Under the pieces are notes generated by a model that was given only the letters and a program-made list of their open reading frames with translations, had not been told where the DNA came from and did no database searches. A stretch of 64,000 bases of DNA, from contig CAYZZS010000004.1 of the NCBI GenBank assembly GCA_964483035.1, positions 10,081-74,080 of the forward strand. Reading direction: 5' to 3'. This DNA comes from an uncultured Candidatus Saccharibacteria bacterium (GTDB taxonomy: Bacteria > Patescibacteriota > Saccharimonadia > Saccharimonadales > CAYZZS01). A program made the position numbers and the translations under genes. Positions within the stretch are counted from its first letter, which is position 1, and each line of letters opens with the position of its first letter. Positions 6,634 through 42,137 of this stretch are shown piece after piece.

Positions 6634-6999
6634 CTATAAACCTTTATGTGCTTTTACTATCTCGGTGGTGATGAGTTTTTTGGCTTTGTCTTTGTTTTTT
6701 TGCAGAGCAGGCTTCAGGTATGGCTGTGCCTGCATTTTGCTTGTACCTAGTTCGACATACAGGGCATATTCCTTGTTAGTGCCTACTGTCGCTTCTGCGC
6801 CGCTTGGTATGGCCTTGCTGTTGGTGTTTATTGAGTCTCTTAACTCGCCAGTATCAACAGGTACGATATTTTTTGCCGTACCTTCGACAAGCAATCCAGC
6901 CAGATTGACACCTGTTAGGATTGCCTCCCTTGTTAAGGGGTCGAGCTTGTTGAGCTTTGCCTGCAACCGTCCAAGGTTCTTTATTTTTACTGTTGCCAT
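6634..6999 (-). CDS. HK97 gp10-family head-tail joining protein
   Basis: Contains VPVDTGELRDSI...KEYALYVELGTSKMQAQPYLKPAL, which matches my recollection of the gp10-family signature. Confidence 0.7.
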   Translation of the reverse strand: MATVKIKNLGRLQAKLNKLDPLTREAILTGVNLAGLLVEGTAKNIVPVDTGELRDSINTNSKAIPSGAEATVGTNKEYALYVELGTSKMQAQPYLKPALQKNKDKAKKLITTEIVKAHKGL

Positions 7000-11009: not shown

Positions 11010-12568
11010 TAGCGCACCTCTATGTCTATAGTCATCGCGGCATCTTCAACGACTAATCCGGTAATTGTCTCACGGACTTCAATATCGGTTATTTGCTCTG
11101 TTGCTATAAGGTCGACTACCGAGTCTCCTACCTCCAGCTCAATATCCCTCTTTTGGATTTCCAGCTCGATAGTGTTGATGTCGATACCAGACAAGAAATG
11201 AAGTGTCGCTTCGTCTAGAGTAGAGGATGAGAAACTATTATGTATCTGTATATAATGTCTCTGGGTAAGGAGCAGTCGCTCAAGGCCGCTTACTGAAGAT
11301 ACCTTTTGCACGGTTAGCAATGCAGACTGACTAAGCGCCACAGCGCTCAAATCTGTTTCAGAGGACAGACTGGTAACTGTTAGTATAAAGCCCTGCGACA
11401 GATTGGCTTCGTTAAGTCTCGCGGCAGAGGTTAGGTCGCCAATGCTCAGGATGTGCTTTTGCGACAGGTTTGTACTGTCTATGGTTGTCGCTGACGTAAT
11501 GCCCTGCACGCTTAGCGGAGTTTCGGTTGCAAGTTCTATGGAGCCTAAGCTACCGCTAGATGATGCCGATTGTATGGTCAGGCCAGTCTGCGTGTCTAAC
11601 GTCAGGCTACCCAGGTTCGCTTCGCTTACTACATCATTTGTAGTGAGGCTGTATGATGCCTCTATTTGTACAGCTTCTAGCTCACTCGTTGAAGTGATAG
11701 TATCCACGATTAAAGTGACAGAGTGACTTAGCTCGATCGTACCCAGGTGAGCGGTAGAGGCAAGCCCTTGCGCTACAAGCTGGTGGCTCTGGGTTAGCGC
11801 GCTGGCTTCTAGCGCACTGGTGGTGGACATATTCTGGACTTCTAGTATGTGTTTCTGGACGAGCGGAATAGTTTCAAGCGAAGTGCTTGAAACCAGATCT
11901 TGTAGGGTGACAGCTCCGGCTTGGGTTAGTGCGAGGCTTGTTAAGGTCGATTCTGACGTAAGGCCGTTTACTGTCAGGCTGTGCTTTTGCGAGAGCGTAG
12001 CCGCGCTTAATGAAGCAGTAGAGGCTATGCCACTTACTGTTAGCGAGTGAGTTTGCGTCAGATTAGCGCTGCCTACCGCTGCTAGAGAGACAGCCCCTTG
12101 TACGGTGAGCGGCGTGTCGCTGGAGCCGTCGCCATACGTGGCGTAGATCGAGTACCGGAAGTTGTTATTCGTCGTACCGGAGGGGTCAGGGAAGTTGGCA
12201 GCATACGCGATTGCCCGAAAGCGACCGAGGCCCGCGGCGCTCTCACGCGCAATTGTGACGGCAAACGATCCATCAGCCCAGGCGAGTATGTAGTAGCTGC
12301 CTGCTGAGATAGTCGGTGGACTAGCGAAGTTGGCGGTATGCCACTGCGCGCCTGTCGGCAGCGAAATTTCTTCAGTCTGCGCTATCAACGCGTCCGTCAC
12401 GGCGTCGTAGAGAGCGAACTTAGCTTTACGGGCCGCATTGTTACTGTTCAAATACGCCGAGATGCTGGCAACCGTTCCCGCGTCCGCAGCGACCGGGCCT
12501 GCACCGAGAATGTTGCCGGACAGCTGACCGGTCGATCCCCCGACGGAGGTGTTACCGAAGGTTGCCAT
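11009..12568 (-). CDS. Virion-associated repeat protein (globular N-domain plus 13 x 22-aa Ser/Thr-rich repeats)
   Basis: 519 aa. From residue 170 I can lay out 13 consecutive 22-residue units, for example LTQTHSLTVSGIASTASLSAAT and LSQKHSLTVNGLTSESTLTSLA. Confidence 0.65.
   Translation of the reverse strand: MATFGNTSVGGSTGQLSGNILGAGPVAADAGTVASISAYLNSNNAARKAKFALYDAVTDALIAQTEEISLPTGAQWHTANFASPPTISAGSYYILAWADGSFAVTIARESAAGLGRFRAIAYAANFPDPSGTTNNNFRYSIYATYGDGSSDTPLTVQGAVSLAAVGSANLTQTHSLTVSGIASTASLSAATLSQKHSLTVNGLTSESTLTSLALTQAGAVTLQDLVSSTSLETIPLVQKHILEVQNMSTTSALEASALTQSHQLVAQGLASTAHLGTIELSHSVTLIVDTITSTSELEAVQIEASYSLTTNDVVSEANLGSLTLDTQTGLTIQSASSSGSLGSIELATETPLSVQGITSATTIDSTNLSQKHILSIGDLTSAARLNEANLSQGFILTVTSLSSETDLSAVALSQSALLTVQKVSSVSGLERLLLTQRHYIQIHNSFSSSTLDEATLHFLSGIDINTIELEIQKRDIELEVGDSVVDLIATEQITDIEVRETITGLVVEDAAMTIDIEVR
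11204..12061 (-). repeat. Tandem 66-bp (22-codon) degenerate coding repeats, about 13 copies
   Basis: The period was read from the translated protein. The units conserve L-[ST]-Q-x-H-x-L-x-V and a downstream S/T cluster. Confidence 0.7.
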
Positions 12569-14754: not shown

Positions 14755-16014
14755 TAATTCGATAAAATGTATGCGCCTGTCGTCCACTTCCCTTGCGTAA
14801 CAAATAATCGCTGCATCAGCTAGGTCAGGTGATCTAAAGCCACGCTTTTTGTAATCATCCTTTGATTCGACCTTACGTTTGCCCTTGTTGTCCATCTTCC
14901 ATTGTCTTGTGGTGAGTTCCATTAACAGGTTAGTATCATGCGGCAATTCAGCCTCACGGATGACTTCGGCCATGTGAAACCACGCCTCACTAATCCAGTT
15001 GGGGTATTTATCATCATCAATCGCCTTAGCCCCGAAGTTCACCGCTTTGATGTTCTTATAGCCTCGGTTCATCATGTCGTCAGTCACGCCACCACCAACG
15101 CCAGTATCATCTATGCGGATTTCCAGCTCCTTATCAAAGCCAACAAAATCTTCTAATAAATCACAGGTTTCAGTCGTGCGCTTCTTGGTGTAGACCGTAT
15201 ACTTGATGGTCTTTAAGCCTTTACGCATCCAGAATACGATTCTATCGTCACCCATGCGGGCAATGTCAGCTCCGACAATCACCGCGCCATCGCCCTTAAC
15301 TTTGCGACTCATTGCCTCTAGTGCAGCAGTACGAGGGATTATAGCGGTATCTCCCTGGCTTACTGGTTCGCCAAGCCACTTATGGGCATAGAGTTCGGGG
15401 TCAGTTTTCTTGTCATGCTCCATCTCCTTGCGGAGCACATCAGGGAATATGCCATACTTTTCTGCAACGTCGTAATTCACCTTGAGAGAAAAAGTATCCT
15501 CTGGCGGATTCATGACGTATTTAACGTACACAGGGTCAAGCTCAGTCATTCGGTTGAATGTAAAAATAAGCTGCGAGCCGTCTTTTCTAACGGTAGGTGA
15601 TAGGATGTCTAGGCTTTCTTCGCTGACAGATTGCGCTTCTTCAACCCAGCAAATATCAATGCCCTCAAGGGACTTAACGCTTTGGGTCGTGCCTTTTTTC
15701 AGCCCCTTGAATATAAAGTTCGACCCCGTAACGGTGTTTATGATTGATGTATTTGTGTACTTAAAGTCTGTGAATTCATACAGCTCGATAATATCTTTAA
15801 GTAGCTGCATGCTGGAGTCATCTATAGAGTTCTGAAGCTCACGAGTACAGAGTATGCGAACCTTGTCTTTTCTAGCCCTTAGTATTAGCGATCTAGCCAC
15901 GCTATGCGATTTCGTGCTGCCTCGACCGCCATAGAAAACCAAATTACGCCACTTAGGGTTAAACAGTTCCTTAAACTCTGCTGGAATATCAACTATCGTT
16001 TCGCTGGTCGTCAT
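14752..16014 (-). CDS. Terminase large subunit
   Basis: 420 aa with the Walker A-like motif [12 protein letters not shown] and a C-terminal nuclease-type region. Confidence 0.85.
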
Positions 16015-32251: not shown

Positions 32252-33352
32252 ATGTCCCGGCCGTATGAACATATAGGAAAGCCAAGTCCTGAGGCAGTAT
32301 TCCAGCGCACCCGAGATGCCCTCGGGGTGCCGCAGGAGCGCGAGTTGGAGCGGGGCCTACCCGAGAGTGCCGTATTGTTTGAGCGATTTCCCCACCGCTT
32401 TTTGCCAACAATCGGTGTCGAGATCGAACTGCAGCATTCGCAGCTGGATCACCGTGTCGGTTGGTATATGGAGAATGATGTTGCCTATCATGATTTGCCG
32501 GAGTGGAAACAGCGCGAACTCCAGCCCATTTTCCAGGATATTGACGATAAGTGGCTGCCCCGCCTGGCGGCACTTGAAAAGGCCCGGCTGCGGCTTGGAA
32601 ATGATTCATATAAGGAAGTTATTACGCCGCCGTATTACTACAATGCTACCCTAGCTAGGCTCACGAATTATCTGTTTGATACTGGAGTTCTTCCCGAGGG
32701 CGGTGCTCACCCACTACACATTACCTTAGGCGGCATTGATATTGGTGAGTATGATGACGCACTGCACTCACTGGCACGGATGGTTGAGCTGCTCGAAGGC
32801 AGTACGCATCATCGGGTTGCGACACCTATGCATACTAGTAAGCCTCACTGGACACAGAAATCCGCAACTGGCTATCTGAAGAGAAGTTCTCAGGAGCTTG
32901 CAGGCGGTGTGTCCGGTCTGGAGCTACGGGCTCTGCAAGCTAGTGATGCTCAGCAGCTCGCGAGAGTGTTGTGGCGGGCGCAATGGTTGGGTGCTGAGCT
33001 GAATGCGTGGCTGCAATCTACCGAGGAAGAACGGCAACACCCTTCCCTGATTGACCATCCTGATGAGTATGATCGTCAACTGCTTGTGACGGGCTGGAAT
33101 GGTATGGTGAAGTTTATGACAGAAGTGTATGAGTTAAATGGTGTGGATTTTGATTCGAATTGGGGCGGACCGCTTGAGAATCCGCAAGTGTGGTACGTGC
33201 AAATGGGACTTTGCAGTACTACGATGCAGAATCAGGATTTCAAGTCGAGACTGTGCCTTGCTGTTGACGATGCGCTAGAGAGTGTAGAGATAGGTGTCCT
33301 AACGCATCATCGGTTCGCGTGTATGCGCCAGGGCTATCTGCCTGCTAAATAG
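32252..33352 (+). CDS. Hypothetical protein (possibly amidoligase-like)
   Basis: 366 aa. TIGVEIELQH resembles the amidoligase N-terminal strand. The assignment is weak. Confidence 0.5.
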   Translation: MSRPYEHIGKPSPEAVFQRTRDALGVPQERELERGLPESAVLFERFPHRFLPTIGVEIELQHSQLDHRVGWYMENDVAYHDLPEWKQRELQPIFQDIDDKWLPRLAALEKARLRLGNDSYKEVITPPYYYNATLARLTNYLFDTGVLPEGGAHPLHITLGGIDIGEYDDALHSLARMVELLEGSTHHRVATPMHTSKPHWTQKSATGYLKRSSQELAGGVSGLELRALQASDAQQLARVLWRAQWLGAELNAWLQSTEEERQHPSLIDHPDEYDRQLLVTGWNGMVKFMTEVYELNGVDFDSNWGGPLENPQVWYVQMGLCSTTMQNQDFKSRLCLAVDDALESVEIGVLTHHRFACMRQGYLPAK

Positions 33353-35207
33353 CTATGGAGCTAGGATCGGGCTTAGCGGGCTGGGCAGGTGCTGCCGGGC
33401 CTGGGTCGGGAGCTGGAGCGGGAGCCGGCTGCTGGCTTGCAGCGTAAATTTCATTGCCGGGCGGCACTACACCATTTGTTGCTGCCTGAGGGGCGGCGGG
33501 TAATTGCATGCCGGCTTCGCGTAATTCTTCCTGCTCGAGCAGCTTGTTTAGGTCTGTCTTTGGAGCGCTGATATCGGTAATGGGTTGAATGACTTTCTTG
33601 TTTGCTATGTGAACGGCACTGGTTTCCGAGCCCGAACTTGTATCCGTACCGGGCTGAGCGGCTTGTGGTTCAGCTGCTGGGGCTGCTGGCTCCGGTGTTG
33701 GGATGGCCGGTTGCGGTGGAGCTGGCTGGACTGCAGCAGGTTCACTTGGCGCTACCGGAGGGGCTTGCGGTGCTGGGTCGGCAGGCTGAGCGGCTTGTGG
33801 TTCGGTAGGGGCAGCCGGCTGCTGATCAGCAAAAGGCTCTACTGCTACCGGAGGCTGCGTTGCTGCAGCTGTCTCCGGTGCCGGTTCGGCAGAGGTGGTG
33901 ATTGTCGGATTGCTGGCTAAGAAGTCATTAATCTGCTGATTGATCAGCGCCTCTTCCGTTGCAGTTGTTTGCGTTAAGGTCGGGTCAATGTCCGCACCTG
34001 GAGTGGCAGGCGCAGGTACTTGCTGAGGGGTGTCAACTGTGTCAGCAGGCGCTGGTGCCTTGCTGGCTACAGCTTCCGTTTGTCCGGTCGTCATGTCCGG
34101 TGCGGGAGTGGACTCGGCTACAGCTGGCATAGCTGCTGTATCAGCGCTTGGAGTGACAGTGGCTGCCGGAGCTGCTTCCAGTACCGGAGGCTTTTCAGAG
34201 GCAAGTGTTGTGACGGGTTCAGGTTCCGGAATGGGATCGACAGGCACCGCTGGGGCAGCTGGGGTTTGTACTGCCTGTAAGGTTGGTGCTAAATCAGCGC
34301 TCGGGGCTGCTGCCGGAGGCTGCATGGTGGCGGCTGTCATGTCGGTAGCCATAGCTGGGGCTTGCTGCATTACTGCTGGCTGTGCGGGAGGTGTAGCTGG
34401 TTCCGGGGTGACAACAGTACTCGCAGAGGGATCCTGCGGTGCGGTGGCTGCAGGAGTAGGCTGATCAAGAGGTGCGGCCGGTGCTACCACAGGGGCAGCC
34501 GGCAATGCTCCATCTTGGACCGGAGCTGGTGCTGCTGGCTGCGTGCCGTCAAGGTTGGGTAGCTGCAATTCGGGTGCCTGAGGTTGCGGTGTAGGCTCGG
34601 TAGTGGGCTGAGGTTGAGGTACTGCCTGGTCTGCTGGAGCTGTAGCAGCTGGAGGTTCAGCAGGTAGCGCGGATGGCTCGGCTGCTGCTTCGGTCACAAC
34701 TGGCGGCGGAGCCGCTGGCTGCAATCCTGGATCGAATGAGTTTTGCTGGGTCGGCGAAGAAGGCAAAGCTGCCTGAGGGGCATCTGCCGGCATCTGGTCT
34801 CTGTCGGCAGCGGAAGCCGCTGCTTCCGGTGATGGAGCGTCGCCTTCGAGTACTTCGCGGGCTACTTTGGCTACATCCTCCAGGGTGACCTGGGATTTGA
34901 CCAGGTAGCGGTCAGCACCAAGCTTGTCAGCTCGAGTTTTATCCTCTACCTGACTAAGAGCGGTCATCATAATAACCTTGGTATTCTTGGTTTCAGGCGT
35001 GCTGCGCAGGATATCGAGCATGTCAAAGCCGCTAATCTTGGGCATCATGATGTCAGATATAATCAAGTCCGGACGTTCCTTAACTGCAAGAGCTAGGGCT
35101 TCTTCTCCATCTTTGGCGGACACGATTTGGTAGCCTTCGGCAAGCAGTCTTGCCTCGTAAATCTCACGAAGGTTATTGTCGTCCTCGACGAGCATTATTT
35201 TTGCCAT
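33345..35207 (-). CDS. Response-regulator receiver domain fused to a ~490-aa Pro/Ala/Thr/Gln-rich low-complexity tail
   Basis: The REC domain reads MAKIMLVEDD...DLIISDIMMPKISGFD...MMTAL. No recognisable output domain follows. Confidence 0.8.
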   Translation of the reverse strand: MAKIMLVEDDNNLREIYEARLLAEGYQIVSAKDGEEALALAVKERPDLIISDIMMPKISGFDMLDILRSTPETKNTKVIMMTALSQVEDKTRADKLGADRYLVKSQVTLEDVAKVAREVLEGDAPSPEAAASAADRDQMPADAPQAALPSSPTQQNSFDPGLQPAAPPPVVTEAAAEPSALPAEPPAATAPADQAVPQPQPTTEPTPQPQAPELQLPNLDGTQPAAPAPVQDGALPAAPVVAPAAPLDQPTPAATAPQDPSASTVVTPEPATPPAQPAVMQQAPAMATDMTAATMQPPAAAPSADLAPTLQAVQTPAAPAVPVDPIPEPEPVTTLASEKPPVLEAAPAATVTPSADTAAMPAVAESTPAPDMTTGQTEAVASKAPAPADTVDTPQQVPAPATPGADIDPTLTQTTATEEALINQQINDFLASNPTITTSAEPAPETAAATQPPVAVEPFADQQPAAPTEPQAAQPADPAPQAPPVAPSEPAAVQPAPPQPAIPTPEPAAPAAEPQAAQPGTDTSSGSETSAVHIANKKVIQPITDISAPKTDLNKLLEQEELREAGMQLPAAPQAATNGVVPPGNEIYAASQQPAPAPAPDPGPAAPAQPAKPDPSSIAI

Positions 35208-37263: not shown

Positions 37264-37338
37264 GGCCTCATCGTCTAGCGGTTAGGACACCGGGTTCTCA
37301 TCCCGGCAACCGGGGTTCGATTCCCCGTGAGGTCACCA
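37264..37338 (+). tRNA. tRNA-Glu (anticodon CUC), CCA encoded
   Basis: Cloverleaf built by hand: acceptor GGCCTCA/TGAGGTC, anticodon stem CCGGG/CCCGG with loop TTCTCAT, and T arm CGGGG-TTCGATT-CCCCG. Confidence 0.85.
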
Positions 37339-38833
37339 AAAGAGACTCATTTGACATAGATGGGTCTTTTTTCATGCTTGCTAAGGTGTAAAGTGTGCTT
37401 AATTTGGGCGTTCGAAATTTATTTGTAGTCAGGTCGTATTCAAGCCCTTCTGGAAAGACTAGACGTTGGTAGATTATTTGATGTTCTATCGAGGCGTTAC
37501 TCCAAATTCGTGGTGCGTTCGACATAAAACGCATCGCATAATCTATTGCATCAGTTTTTAGTTCAGATAAAGAGCCGATACTGGTAAGGTCTTCCTGTAC
37601 AGCATCAGACTCAATCTTTATCTTAGCTACAAGGTCCTTCTTCTCATCTACTGTTATCTGTCCTGCAACAAGCATTTCTACAACCTTATTTCTTCGCTCT
37701 GTAAGCTGTTCTAAGACCTTGTGGAGCTTCTTTTGTTTACTGCTTAGGGTTTGCGTCTCTTCACGCCAGACACGTACTATTATCTCTTTTAAGAACTTCT
37801 CCATATCTGGGTCAGGAGTTAGTGATGACAGCAGTTGCAAGAATTGTTCATGTAGCTCTATTGTCTGTACAGATGGGACATGACACCTAGAACAGTGGTA
37901 ACGCGGAGAACGCTTACCCGATCCACCGACTGGACTACTGCCAGTCATATACTTATTACAATTTGCACACACGAGGAAACGTCTCAGAGGAAATTCAGGA
38001 TTATTCTTCTTGTATGTAGCAGCAGTGTTTTTGTTGCTTCTCAGTAGCTCTTGATTACGGTGAAATGTTGCAGGAGTAATAATCCCTTTGAATTTTGAAG
38101 GTATGAGCTGACCCTCTGTGTGACTACTTTGTTCAAGTCCTGCATAGATAGGATTACGCAACATCTTGCTTAGTGCCTGTATCTGCATCGGCTTGCCTGT
38201 AGCAGATTTCAACCCGATACTTTCACACAGCTTAATAAGACTAGCGATTGTGTAGGTACCTGTTGCGTATACTTCTAATACAGTAACCACCTTATCTGCT
38301 ACCCCCTCTACAGGTGCAAGCGTGGATTTCTCAAGTACATCTCTCACATTTCTCAGGCCGTGAGGTGCTTTACTCATACGCCAGCCCTCTTTTGCGTGGG
38401 CTTTCATGTTGTCTTTCACACGGACAGACTTAACCTTGTTGTCATGTTGAGCTAGTACAGCTTCTAAGTTCTGGATAAGCTCCTCATTAACGCTATCCTC
38501 AACACCTGAGTTGATATTCTTGTACTGAACACCTAATTTAGATAACAAGGTGCGTAGTGCGAAAAAGTCTGAAGCATTACGTGTTAGACGGTCTGTCTGG
38601 TATGTGATGAGATAGTGTATGTTACCCTTGTTCGCTTCAAGATACGCTAACATCTCTTTCATGGCAGGACGGTCGAGGGTTTTGGCCGATACACCGTCAT
38701 CGTGGTAGATTTCTTTAACCAGTACATCATTACGTGATGCCCAATCCTGACATAGCTTTTGCTGGATATCGAGACTAGCACCCTCTACTTGTTGAGTAGT
38801 TGATACCCGAAGATAAATAACTGCTTTTTTCAT
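37298..38833 (-). CDS. Large serine recombinase (integrase)
   Basis: The resolvase-type N-terminus is KKAVIYLRVSTTQQ. A recombinase domain, a zinc ribbon (CANCNKYMTG...RYHCSRC) and a coiled coil follow. Confidence 0.9.
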   Translation of the reverse strand: MKKAVIYLRVSTTQQVEGASLDIQQKLCQDWASRNDVLVKEIYHDDGVSAKTLDRPAMKEMLAYLEANKGNIHYLITYQTDRLTRNASDFFALRTLLSKLGVQYKNINSGVEDSVNEELIQNLEAVLAQHDNKVKSVRVKDNMKAHAKEGWRMSKAPHGLRNVRDVLEKSTLAPVEGVADKVVTVLEVYATGTYTIASLIKLCESIGLKSATGKPMQIQALSKMLRNPIYAGLEQSSHTEGQLIPSKFKGIITPATFHRNQELLRSNKNTAATYKKNNPEFPLRRFLVCANCNKYMTGSSPVGGSGKRSPRYHCSRCHVPSVQTIELHEQFLQLLSSLTPDPDMEKFLKEIIVRVWREETQTLSSKQKKLHKVLEQLTERRNKVVEMLVAGQITVDEKKDLVAKIKIESDAVQEDLTSIGSLSELKTDAIDYAMRFMSNAPRIWSNASIEHQIIYQRLVFPEGLEYDLTTNKFRTPKLSTLYTLASMKKDPSMSNESLLVTSRGIEPRLPG

Positions 38834-39057
38834 AGTGATGTTATTCCTGCGCTTTCAATAGTAGCATTATTTTTGATATTTTTCGAACTAATATACGTGC
38901 GAATAGAAAGCCTGACTACTGTTTCAGTAGCTCGTATTAGTACTTCTAACTCTTCTTTGGTTAGTTCTTTTGATATTTGGCCTAAGAGCTTTCGAGCTTC
39001 TTTGACCGTTATGACCTGCTGGTCATTTATATTGAGTGGTTCTTTTTGTTGTTCCAC
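38830..39057 (-). CDS. Small protein upstream of and coupled to the recombinase (possible DNA-binding or directionality factor)
   Basis: 75 aa; overlaps the integrase start as ATGA. Confidence 0.45.
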   Translation of the reverse strand: MEQQKEPLNINDQQVITVKEARKLLGQISKELTKEELEVLIRATETVVRLSIRTYISSKNIKNNATIESAGITSL

Positions 39058-39160
39058 TGTAAATCCTGTCAGACCGACTGAAGATTGTTAGAGCCTTCAG
39101 TGACAAGACACTCTAGCGAGGAGATAATTTATATTTTGTGGTTTGCCCTAGAATCGAAAA

Positions 39161-39221
39161 AGGATAAATCCTAGTGGCAAACACCCTCTTCGCAAAAAGG
39201 AGGTTTGTCAGGATTTATCCT
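39161..39221. promoter_or_regulatory. Two copies of a 12-bp palindromic site (AGGATAAATCCT / AGGATTTATCCT), centres 49 bp apart
   Basis: Read directly at 39161-39172 and 39210-39221, in the divergent intergenic region of the island. Confidence 0.5.
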
Positions 39222-39379
39222 TTGATTACACACCAAACGAGTGATGTGCAAGCAATGTTTTTCGACCACATTACAATATTTATATTATACCATATTCTGT
39301 TTACATCTGTTCTTTCGTTAGCAAAGTGGCCTATCTGTCATACTAGTAATAGAGGTAATGCGAAAACAAAGGGAGTTAT

Positions 39380-39610
39380 ATGGAAATAAAAAAGGCAGCA
39401 GGAAGACCACCTAAAGTCACTTACAAAACGATGTTAAGGCTTGCGGATGCATTGCAGCACAACAGCACGATCCATGAAGCCTGTCGTTACGCAGGAATAA
39501 GTCGCAATACGTACTACTCATATCTAAATAATGAGGTGTTCGCCGAAAAAATGGCTAGAGCTAAAGAAAACCAGAGTAAAGTGGTGTTTAGTTTCAGTAC
39601 ATATTTCTGA
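39380..39610 (+). CDS. Small HTH DNA-binding protein
   Basis: Contains GRPPKVTYKTMLRLADALQHNSTIHEACRYAGISRNTYYSYL. Confidence 0.55.
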   Translation: MEIKKAAGRPPKVTYKTMLRLADALQHNSTIHEACRYAGISRNTYYSYLNNEVFAEKMARAKENQSKVVFSFSTYF

Positions 39611-39721
39611 AATTTCAGTTGATTTCGCTGTGTTTTTAAGATATTTGGTGTCACAAAAGTGGAAGAAAAAACTCTCTTGATTACATAGTTATTCATAGGG
39701 TGATGTGCCATAATAGTCCTT

Positions 39722-40201
39722 ATGGATTTGAAAGAAATAATTGAGGTGTGGGAGAAGTACGTTGCTACTATAAAAGACTGGCAAGCTCTTGTTGGGCGTA
39801 AAAAACCGAAGATAACACAGTGTGGACCAGTGTACGAACTTAAATCACCTATTCCTAAATGGTACGGATCACTTGCGATTAGTGACATGAGAGAGCTTGC
39901 TGTTGCATACCCCCACTACCATAAGAATGGCGAAACAGAAGTCTACTTCGTTATTCAAGGTACAGGACTAACAGTTGTTGGCGGAAAAGAGGTAAAGCTA
40001 AAGAAGGGTTCTGTAGTAGTTACACCCCCTAACACGACACACTTCACATTCCCTAAGAAAGACTTAGTTATGCTTGTTGTTAATCTGCCAAGATTCAAAG
40101 CTGATAATGTTGTTGAGCTGGAAGATTCTGACCCTGAGGTAAAGTTCGACAAAGACCAATACGAAGAACTGTCATTGAAACATCTCGGACAAATATTATA
40201 A
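39722..40201 (+). CDS. Cupin-domain protein
   Basis: Contains HYHKNGETEVYFVIQGTGLTVVGGKEVKLKKGSVVVTPPNTTH. The extended -10 box TGCCATAAT ends 7 nt before the ATG, so the mRNA is probably leaderless. Confidence 0.6.
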   Translation: MDLKEIIEVWEKYVATIKDWQALVGRKKPKITQCGPVYELKSPIPKWYGSLAISDMRELAVAYPHYHKNGETEVYFVIQGTGLTVVGGKEVKLKKGSVVVTPPNTTHFTFPKKDLVMLVVNLPRFKADNVVELEDSDPEVKFDKDQYEELSLKHLGQIL

Positions 40202-40379
40202 AAATGGCGTTAAAGGGTGTAAATTTGGCGGAAAATTCTGTAGCCACTTGCTTAGGGTTTCTGATAAGTAAATAGTGAACAGCATTTAATGCTCTCTGTG
40301 ACGCATCTGGAGCACTCTGGACAGGTTTTTGGGCGTAAAATGAGTCGTAATTGCTCGCTGAGGTAAGTATACTTACTTT

Positions 40380-41279
40380 ATGTGGTTCGCACTCTCTATT
40401 CTTGCATTGCTCATGTTGTCTGGCAGACGTACCGCCGAAAAGAAGGCTGCGACTGGCATAGACAGTATGGCGATGGCTTGGCTACAACAAGCAGTTGCGT
40501 TACCGCTTATCGTATTGACACTTTTCTTTGCTAGATTCTACTGGCCTAGCGAACTACCCCTTTTATTCTGGGAACTTATGGTTATCTATGTATCCCTGCA
40601 AGCTATATATCTTTATTGTTACTATAAAGCTGTCTCTATTGCTGATATTAGTTTTGTTGCACCTCTCATGACTTTGTTCTCGGTTGGAAACATGATTGGA
40701 GCTTACATTATATTGGGTCAAGTGCCATCGTTATCTGGTGTTATCGGGGCAGCTTTTATTATTTCTGGGGCATGGATAATATCTCGTGCGAAAAAACATG
40801 GTACCGTCGAATCAATAACAGCCCATAAGAAAGCCCTCATGCTAGTAATAGTTGCAATCATTGTTTGTAGCATCTTCTCGAACATAGAAGTAAAAATGCT
40901 GGAAATGAGCAATCCAATAAGCTACAACTTTTACACCTCAGTTCTAACAGTGCCTTTTGTGATTCTGGTTACAGTGATACTTTTAAGAAGCCGAAAGCAG
41001 AATGGCTTAATTTATTGGAAGTCGGTCAATAAAAGTGTCAGAAGCCATGCATGGCCTTTAGCTATTGTCGGCGTAACTTACACTGTAAATATGTTGGCTA
41101 CCTATCAAGCTAAGGTGATGGCTCCGAATCAGGCATATGTCGGTGCTATAAAGGCAGCCTCTGTAATACCTGTCGTTATTCTTGGGGTACTGTTTTTTCA
41201 AGAAAAGGTATCTCGAAAGCAGTGGCTAGGCATTGCTTGTATGCTAATAGGGCTTGCTCTGATTGCTCTTAATGTTTAG
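40380..41279 (+). CDS. EamA/DMT-family transporter
   Basis: 299 aa with about 10 hydrophobic segments in two halves. Confidence 0.65.
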   Translation: MWFALSILALLMLSGRRTAEKKAATGIDSMAMAWLQQAVALPLIVLTLFFARFYWPSELPLLFWELMVIYVSLQAIYLYCYYKAVSIADISFVAPLMTLFSVGNMIGAYIILGQVPSLSGVIGAAFIISGAWIISRAKKHGTVESITAHKKALMLVIVAIIVCSIFSNIEVKMLEMSNPISYNFYTSVLTVPFVILVTVILLRSRKQNGLIYWKSVNKSVRSHAWPLAIVGVTYTVNMLATYQAKVMAPNQAYVGAIKAASVIPVVILGVLFFQEKVSRKQWLGIACMLIGLALIALNV

Positions 41280-41314
41280 CTATTCGTGTCTTAATTGGGA
41301 CTCGTGGTTACTGA

Positions 41315-41683
41315 TTAGAGCCAAGGAGGACCAGAGTAGCGAGTGGTCGTACTGAATACAATCTCGTTATCATCAAAGACATGACGAGCTGGTATTAGTG
41401 CCGATGCGGATTCCATAAGCCCGTTGAAGGTTTCTGTATATTCGTCACGAGCTTTGGCTGCTTCACTTAATACTTCAGTAACACCTTCTTGCATAGGGTC
41501 TGGATTGCGTGACAATAATTCTGCGATGGCTTTTGCACTTTCTATTGCCTTTTGGGCTCTTAAATCATAAACGGCATTAGCGGCTAAGGCTATTTCATAG
41601 CCCTGAACCATCTCATCGTGTTGCGTAACAGGTAATTCTTTACTCATAAAGTATATACTAGCATATTTCCTAGTATAAAGCAA
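41315..41683 (-). CDS. Hypothetical protein
   Basis: 122-aa ORF. Confidence 0.5.
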   Translation of the reverse strand: MLYTRKYASIYFMSKELPVTQHDEMVQGYEIALAANAVYDLRAQKAIESAKAIAELLSRNPDPMQEGVTEVLSEAAKARDEYTETFNGLMESASALIPARHVFDDNEIVFSTTTRYSGPPWL

Positions 41684-41929
41684 ATTTTTTGTAGTGTTAC
41701 AAAAGCCATAAAGGGTGTATGTTGTATAATATAAGTATTGAGCCCAGTCGTTGACTAGCTACTAGTACACTAATAACAAAAATATACGCCGAAAACATAA
41801 CAATAGAGTAGATAGCAGTAGTTCTACTCTAAGCTTGAATGTATCCTGCTACTGTTATTGCCCTCATGTAGCCGTATACCTCAAGTAATTCAGTACAGAT
41901 TGCGTTCAATTTCGACTTTACATAGTTCA

Positions 41930-41978
41930 CCAATGAAAGGCACCCACATTGTGTGGGTGTTTTTCATTGGTTGTTTTG
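41930..41978 (+). terminator. Long near-perfect hairpin followed by a T-rich run
   Basis: CCAATGAAA-GG-CACCCAC attgt GTGGGTG-T-TTTTCATTGG, followed by TTGTTTTGG. Confidence 0.5.
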
Positions 41979-42137
41979 GCGGTACCCGGGTTGCCGCAAT
42001 CCGCAAGGCAAGCTTCTATTTTAGGAAATTCCGTCCATTAAGCCTCGATAACTTCCACTTTTTATAGCTGCCTGCCAATTGTTGTTTTTATTGTGCTTGG
42101 GTATGATTAGGCTTAAGAATTATTACATAGGAGGGAT

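Follow-up and report, generated by a model that had tools for sequence, protein, structure and literature searches.

Within the 64,000-nucleotide stretch of Saccharibacteria DNA that we analysed (the window), the gene for a large serine recombinase (LSR) runs into the 3′ end of a tRNA-Glu gene, and this overlap very probably represents the attL of a small integrative island whose LSR carries attP inside its own reading frame. The tRNA-Glu(CTC) gene, located by ARAGORN at 37264-37338 (plus strand), is complete and chromosomal. The LSR gene lies at 37298-38833 on the minus strand and encodes 511 residues, with the C-terminus ...LLVTSRGIEPRLPG in the ORF list (the same end is also given as ...ESLLVTSRGIEPRLPG). 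The 41-bp overlap of the two genes (37298-37338), already described by a sequence-only reading of the window and confirmed here with ARAGORN and the ORF list, comprises the LSR stop codon, 12 full codons and two nucleotides of a thirteenth. In this integrated form of the gene, codons 1-500 belong to the element, while the tRNA, read antisense, supplies codons 501-511 (TSRGIEPRLPG) and the stop; the stop codon TGA is the complement of 37298-37300, that is, of anticodon positions 35-36 and A37. The overlap is not due to chance, because it is repeated at other loci (41 nt with tRNA-Glu also in L015, L020, L049, L087, L090, L094 and L130) and because C-terminal peptides resembling antisense tRNA T-arms, such as RGIEPRLPG, RRIELRLPG, PGIEPGLPG and TGFEPVLPP, were found in 84 of 120 homolog clusters. 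A TGA arises at the same spot from any tRNA with a YTC anticodon when it is read in the integrase frame, and this fixed position accounts for the near-constant length of 511 residues among database homologs.

The Pfam domains identify the protein as an LSR. A Resolvase domain (PF00239, 2.8e-25, residues 4-150) is followed by a Recombinase domain (PF07508, 6.9e-07; 29.9 bits, cutoff 21.1), and the match to Zn_ribbon_recom (PF13408, 3e-4) lies, with 21.6 bits, below the curated cutoff of 25.3. PHROG assigns the protein to the integrases (1.1e-69). In the homolog alignment, the catalytic S11 of the R9-V-S11-T motif is invariant and the Zn-ribbon cysteines C289, C292, C314 and C317 show little or no variation; following the Zn-ribbon, AlphaFold predicts long antiparallel helices at residues 342-423 with pLDDT values above 90. 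Cysteine conservation and the structural model, together with the sub-threshold Pfam match, thus describe a Zn-ribbon with four cysteines and an inserted coiled coil. Sequence matches in the PDB cover the catalytic domains only and are uninformative about the tail. The homolog search returned a family from Saccharibacteria/Patescibacteria in which most members have 511-520 residues, and at least ten homolog clusters run past a common '...ESLLV' into a longer, protein-like tail (P0018 ends in ...LVNYLKSKWNEICSELLEVYNYMRVITVMNNIPA). No viral relatives of the integrase were found among the IMG/VR viral contigs, so there is no evidence of a phage nature.

Island junctions and the severed integrase tail

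The island stands out as a low-GC block at roughly 37.3-42.0 kb, with 39-44 % GC against roughly 50-55 % in the flanks. Composition and junction mapping define it as 37340-41933 (4,594 bp, core counted once), since TCACCAA is present at both junctions. The comparison of attL and attR yielded identical cores at 37333-37339 and 41927-41933, the identity between the two sites being limited to 6-7 bp. The first six nucleotides of the attL core (TCACCA, 37333-37338) are the last six of tRNA-Glu and are common to all four tRNA-Glu islands (window, L087/L088, L015 and L020). The sequence-only reading had placed a recombination junction within or next to the 3′ half of the tRNA. The junction is real, and because attL and attR have only the 7-bp TCACCAA in common, its position can be narrowed to the extreme 3′ end of the tRNA (acceptor end, discriminator and CCA).

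In the pattern usual for tRNA-inserted islands (PMC4383910), the island would bring its own copy of the tRNA 3′ half in place of the original, as islands with tyrosine integrases do, and the end of the integrase would merely look tRNA-like. In one of its two options, the same reading had let the island supply the tRNA 3′ end. We regard this pattern as refuted and hence as very improbable here: a search of the window with the 29-mer from the tRNA 3′ half, allowing up to three mismatches, found no further copy, the stretch common to attL and attR is only 7 bp long, and the tail of unsplit homologs does not resemble a tRNA. A repeat search of the window for long direct repeats around the low-GC block likewise returned chance-level matches only. 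What the island appears to supply instead is a replacement terminator (see below).

If the integrase gene was cut at 'LV' by integration, its native tail is expected at the other end of the island, and it was found there (41829-41933, minus strand), encoding LV followed by NYVKSKLNAICTELLEVYGYMRAITVAGYIQA and a stop codon and read as LVNYVKSKLNAICTELLEVYGYMRAITVAGYIQA*. Codons 1-500 and the severed tail join in frame to give 532 residues, the exact length of the unsplit homolog P0018. Of the 34 residues in this tail, 31 are identical in the tail of unsplit P0072 and 33 in that of L087. The second option of the sequence-only reading, that integration rewrote the integrase C-terminus, therefore holds, as the native tail is severed at attR and unsplit 532-residue homologs exist. 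As in SSV-type systems, attP lies within the integrase ORF and the gene is split by integration. Uninterrupted long-tail integrase genes are present in L001, L002 and L003, which carry no tRNA on the contig, and the alignment of L001 with the reconstructed circle stays collinear through the junction. With a slash marking the point of exchange, the predicted attB junction reads GGTCACCAA/TGAAAGGCACCC (longer form ...CCCCGTGAGGTCACCAA/TGAAAGGCACCCACA) and the predicted attP junction CATAGTTCACCAA/AAGAGACTC (longer form ...TTTACATAGTTCACCAA/AAGAGACTCATTTGAC); the element sequence directly after tRNA-Glu at attL is AAGAGACTCAT...

Based on these junctions, we propose the following reaction course. 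In the free circular form, the integrase would have 532 residues, and its codons 498-500 (L-L-V; ...TTGGTGA) would be antisense to TCACCA. Recombination within this 6-bp sequence, in which we infer the 2-bp cut site to lie, would place the element immediately 3′ of tRNA-Glu, and the tRNA would survive unchanged, since it has the same core sequence as the element. Since the recombination site lies inside the integrase gene, insertion would swap the integrase tail: the native 32 residues, left 4.6 kb away at attR, would be traded for 11 tRNA-antisense codons, with the anticodon bases 35-36 and A37 providing the new TGA stop. Excision would restore both genes.

Directly upstream of the integrase gene, and overlapping its start by 4 nt, lies a 75-residue ORF (38830-39057, minus strand) that belongs to the conserved integrase module; it shares 60 % identity with its positional counterpart in L001, and a 75-residue ORF is also present in L087. 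Its product is a candidate regulator or directionality factor. The repeat search also revealed a perfect 14-nt inverted repeat (39159-39172 and 39210-39223; AAAGGATAAATCCT / AGGATTTATCCTTT) in the divergent intergenic region between the operon of the 75-residue ORF and the integrase and the gene of a helix-turn-helix protein; this repeat is a possible operator. This helix-turn-helix protein (76 residues, 39380-39610, plus strand) has a weak Pfam match to HTH_Tnp_1_2 and a PHROG match to small-terminase or invertase-type helix-turn-helix proteins (1.2e-10). The cargo consists of a cupin-domain protein (159 residues, 39722-40201, plus strand; Pfam Cupin_2, 9.2e-11), an EamA-family transporter (299 residues, 40380-41279, plus strand; Pfam EamA, 1.2e-17) and a 122-residue ORF (41315-41683, minus strand), a variable cargo gene not conserved in L001. 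Neither the 75-residue nor the 122-residue ORF has a Pfam or PHROG match. Cargo differs from island to island. Logan assemblies of the same strain break at 37339, the right edge of the attL core, where L089 ends, and a second time at 39179, the start of L084 and L085, in the region of the inverted repeat (39159-39223). The integrase module assembles separately and is thus apparently present in more than one context in the Logan samples. The strain is contained in the samples SRR7082966, SRR7082968 and SRR7082982.

Empty sites, the native tRNA terminator and its putative replacement

The distribution of the island was surveyed in 80 species-level Saccharibacteria loci, fetched via the histidine kinase that neighbours the tRNA. 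tRNA-Glu(CTC) adjoins the histidine-kinase gene within the fetched stretch in 70 of the 80 loci, and an LSR overlaps the tRNA in only three of these 70 species (L015, L020 and L049). The sequence-only reading had suggested comparing the locus with island-free relatives; in these, the sequence 3′ of the tRNA differs from that in the window and matches the island's distal flank. Species that lack the island can be aligned with the reconstructed attB (37300-37339 joined to 41934-41990) through the junction, one example being L062 with 86.7 % over 120 nt. The layout common to island-free loci is tRNA...GGTCACCA(A/T), xxAAAxx, a GC hairpin, TTTTT and xxTTGGTTG.

These data also bear on whether the LSR could be a resident chromosomal gene that overlaps a convergent tRNA by chance and has no mobility. 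Overlaps between convergent genes are indeed found in compact CPR genomes. Such a gene would nevertheless have to be reconciled with its absence from 67 of the 70 species with the same tRNA-kinase synteny, with the low-GC block and the cargo that varies between islands, and with a distal flank that matches the sequence 3′ of the tRNA in empty sites. We consider this reading refuted and its remaining probability negligible; the recombinase is sporadic and not the conserved chromosomal gene that the earlier reading had named as the opposite case.

Neither an empty site of the same species nor an excised circle was found in exact-protein look-ups, in which contigs were either occupied or broken, and the attB junction had no matches in the JGI metagenomes. 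The exact 556-residue flank protein returned no record in the look-up for a same-species empty site, a 554-residue version was found on three contigs, each with the island's right end, and the exact response-regulator look-up led to a contig ending at the junction. A response regulator in the window (620 residues, 33345-35207, minus strand) has a normal receiver domain at its N-terminus; the roughly 480 residues after it are low-complexity sequence rich in Pro, Ala, Thr and Gln, and the local GC content at its gene reaches 0.60.

At the right end of the island, a 20-pair hairpin followed by a T-run (41929-41971, plus strand) folds with -31 kcal/mol (z -7.5). A terminator of this type is found directly 3′ of tRNA-Glu in the island-free loci L062, L036, L074, L045, L032, L038, L010 and L014. 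Because island-free species have the same layout after the tRNA, we identify these 45 nt, now displaced by 4.6 kb, as the ancestral terminator of tRNA-Glu. At the left end, an intrinsic terminator borne by the element is predicted at 37338-37373 (plus strand), consisting of an A-tract, a hairpin and T6, and right after the tRNA the sequence reads AAAAGAGACTCAT-loop-ATGGGTCTTTTTT. The attL hairpin folds in tRNA sense with -15.2 kcal/mol (z -4.39), a value matched by none of 200 shuffles. Its reverse complement, in integrase sense, reaches only -4.9 kcal/mol (z 0.02), since two G.U pairs turn into A.C mismatches on the other strand. Compensatory stem changes preserve the hairpin in nine related loci (among them L001, L002, L015, L049, L087, L090 and L092), and it coincides with the conserved integrase peptide KKDPSxxxES. 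Its presumed role is to end transcription of the tRNA once the element has inserted. With the native terminator moved to attR, a hairpin and U-run supplied by integrase codons ~487-498 would thus stand in for it, a case of dual coding in which a putative tRNA terminator is encoded antisense within conserved integrase codons.

Selection on the tail and possible consequences of the swap

An AlphaFold model of P0018, built on a 64-sequence alignment, is confident to about residue 488. It continues with a disordered linker at 493-506, the region of the crossover codons, followed by a helix of low confidence at 507-524, the pLDDT being 40-50 for residues 493-532. According to this model, the native tail may form a tethered amphipathic helix, an assignment of low confidence. 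A helix motif, W-N-x-[ILV]-[LF]...L, occurs in the tails of homologs down to ~30 % identity, and its recurrence in such distant tails speaks for a role of the tail in the free form. Between the severed tail and that of L087, there are five synonymous differences and one non-synonymous difference (pN/pS about 0.06), which indicates that the severed tail is under purifying selection.

A different reading of the tail swap is that the split is real and has no effect, attP simply lying in the dispensable 3′ end of the integrase gene of a compact element and both forms of the enzyme being equal. We assign it a considerable probability that stays somewhat below even. It is consistent with the exchange of only 32 of 532 residues, which leaves all catalytic and DNA-binding domains intact, with the low confidence of the predicted tail structure, and with the wide variation in tail length and sequence between subfamilies; the purifying selection on the tail and the motif that recurs to ~30 % identity speak against it.

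Comparison with L002 provides a view of the tail's history. DNA identity between the window and L002 is 53-57 % in the integrase body, rises to 67 % over the 100 nt preceding the core and reaches 92 % in the tail; the step coincides exactly with the core (L002:1612-1810 compared with window 41829-41933 and 37340-37440). Such a step is the pattern that site-specific tail exchange between different elements would produce. As far as can be read from these alignments, the elements move across species and exchange tails at the core, which is evidence that they cycle. The L002 integrase gene is a hybrid, and its body has 44 % protein identity to the integrase of the window.

Integration could also be a one-way step, if the 511-residue protein were inactive and the element remained locked in place unless an intact integrase came from another copy, a model put forward for SSV-type integrases of archaea. 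The analogy with archaeal SSV-type integrases that carry attP inside the gene (PMC8371274; PMC7253208), the resemblance of a hybrid integrase with its breakpoint at the core to hybrid archaeal enzymes, and the excess of integrated over free forms (84 against at least ten homolog clusters) all fit such a suicidal integrase. In contrast to SSV-type integrases, however, the integrated ORF retains every recognisable domain; the bodies of integrated integrases show no decay and are under strong purifying selection (pN 0.041 against pS 0.624), and the severed tails are still intact, which implies a frequent return to the free form. We therefore judge a one-way lock to be unlikely.

Serine integrases catalyse integration between attP and attB, whereas excision needs a directionality factor; they are prized in genome engineering for being simple and directional. 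The tethered C-terminal helix might tune the activity or direction of the integrase, so that the free and integrated enzymes would differ, an idea we hold as possible at roughly a one-third weight. Likewise possible, though on the unlikely side, is a wider proposal in which the tail swap would be a built-in state sensor, with 532- and 511-residue integrases differing in activity or directionality, within a large CPR-centred clade of serine integrases that reads many tRNA 3′ ends and reshuffles specificity and tails at the core. The element would then register its integration without a separate factor, and the targets of the clade would be the tRNAs for Glu, Ala and probably Gly, Met, Ser, Arg, His, Lys and Leu. 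The LSR family offers a testable route to a control of directionality that is independent of cofactors.

Known systems and integrases at other tRNA genes

The enzyme resembles LSRs of the Bxb1, phiC31, A118/LI and TP901-1 type in its resolvase catalytic domain, recombinase domain and Zn-ribbon with a long coiled-coil insertion, in serving a small element at one specific chromosomal site and, as the 6-7 bp common to the junctions would suggest, probably also in the very short identity between attP and attB. It differs from them in that it targets a tRNA gene at the 3′ end, that attP lies inside the integrase ORF and integration alters the enzyme's own C-terminus, and that the putative replacement terminator of the tRNA is encoded antisense within integrase codons. 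The sequence-only reading called tRNA targeting much less typical of large serine recombinases than of tyrosine integrases, in agreement with the literature (PMC4383910).

Attachment sites inside the integrase gene have been described for SSV-type tyrosine integrases and were said to be exclusive to archaea (PMC8371274), where hybrid suicidal integrases with gene parts of different origin are also known (PMC7253208). SSV-type integrases (SSV1, pT26-2 family) share with the present system an attP in the integrase ORF, a tRNA target, split gene parts at opposite ends of the element and hybrid genes assembled from parts of different origin (compare L002). They are, however, tyrosine recombinases of archaeal hosts, whereas the Pfam domains place the enzyme studied here in the unrelated serine superfamily, in a bacterial host (Saccharibacteria/CPR). 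Moreover, only the last 32 of 532 codons are removed here, and the other 500 remain in an open ORF that keeps all domains; the outcome therefore appears to be a tail swap and not two inactive pseudogenes. Islander-type islands with tyrosine integrases are comparable in their tRNA target, in the tRNA remaining functional after insertion and in the position of the integrase gene at the island edge beside the tRNA; they differ from the serine-recombinase island described here, which has no displaced tRNA fragment or long direct repeat and a core of only 6-7 bp. Broussard et al. reportedly described in 2013 mycobacteriophages of clusters G, N and P in which a phage ORF beside the integrase gene contains attP in its 3′ end; integration at a tRNA gene is said to change the C-terminus of the encoded protein and hence its behaviour (integration-dependent immunity). 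In the mycobacteriophages, a repressor is rewritten by the action of a tyrosine integrase, whereas here a serine integrase would itself be rewritten, with a possible effect on its behaviour.

Our search of the open-access literature found no attP within the integrase gene of a serine recombinase or of a bacterium, and no tRNA-targeting LSR from Saccharibacteria. An LSR module that combines an intragenic attP, a tRNA 3′-end target, a tail swap and an antisense-encoded terminator thus appears to have no published serine equivalent. The findings challenge two textbook statements, namely that tRNA targeting is a trait of tyrosine integrases and that 'suicidal' integrases with an internal attachment site are a peculiarity of archaeal tyrosine recombinases. 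For annotation, they account for database integrases that end in GIEPRLPG or GFEPVLPP. Small cargo islands of 4-8 kb emerge as a common vehicle of gene flux in Saccharibacteria and other CPR bacteria, groups in which little is known about mobile elements.

Split integrases were also found at other loci. Among the tRNA-Glu islands with the core TCACCA, L087/L088 (5,513 bp) encodes an integrase 92 % identical to that of the window, and L015 (4,104 bp) and L020 (5,681 bp) encode integrases with 31 % identity; in all three, the integrase gene ends 41 nt into tRNA-Glu, with the severed tail, correctly oriented, at the far end of the island. Two islands in tRNA-Ala genes, L097 (8,428 bp) and L103 (6,721 bp), have integrases with ~30 % identity and the core GTGGAC (integrase sense); their distal tails begin with LVDSSIAFWNSF... 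and LVDFSIPFWNTF..., respectively, and the distal flank consists of a hairpin and a T-run. The split integrase is thereby established for the Glu and Ala subfamilies only. In tRNA sense, the core of the Ala subfamily is GTCCAC (L097:3016-3140 and 11380-11509; L103:91-210 and 6750-6877), and after integration the tRNA-Ala gene continues as ...GTCCAC/TCG and not as ...GTCCAC/CAAAAA. Since integration thus removes the genomically encoded CCA, the CCA of this tRNA would need to be added post-transcriptionally.

More distant LSRs (23-35 % identity, some of them Microgenomates-like) also stop antisense inside tRNA genes, with overlaps of 41-185 nt (L106, L109, L111-L113, L115, L116, L119, L123, L124, L128-L130, L135, L144, L149, L150 and L154). 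The tRNAs entered are those for Glu, Gly, Met, Ser, Arg, His, Lys, Leu and Ala. A search of the islands whose LSRs overlap tRNAs for Arg, His, Lys, Leu, Met and Ser gave no convincing severed tails. Finally, a 164-kb contig (L092) carries an N-terminally truncated integrase copy (L092:10010-11371), which starts at about residue 90, lacks the catalytic serine and has an uninterrupted native-type tail. It lies 4.4 kb from tRNA-Glu (15770-15844) and may represent a decayed or tandem element.
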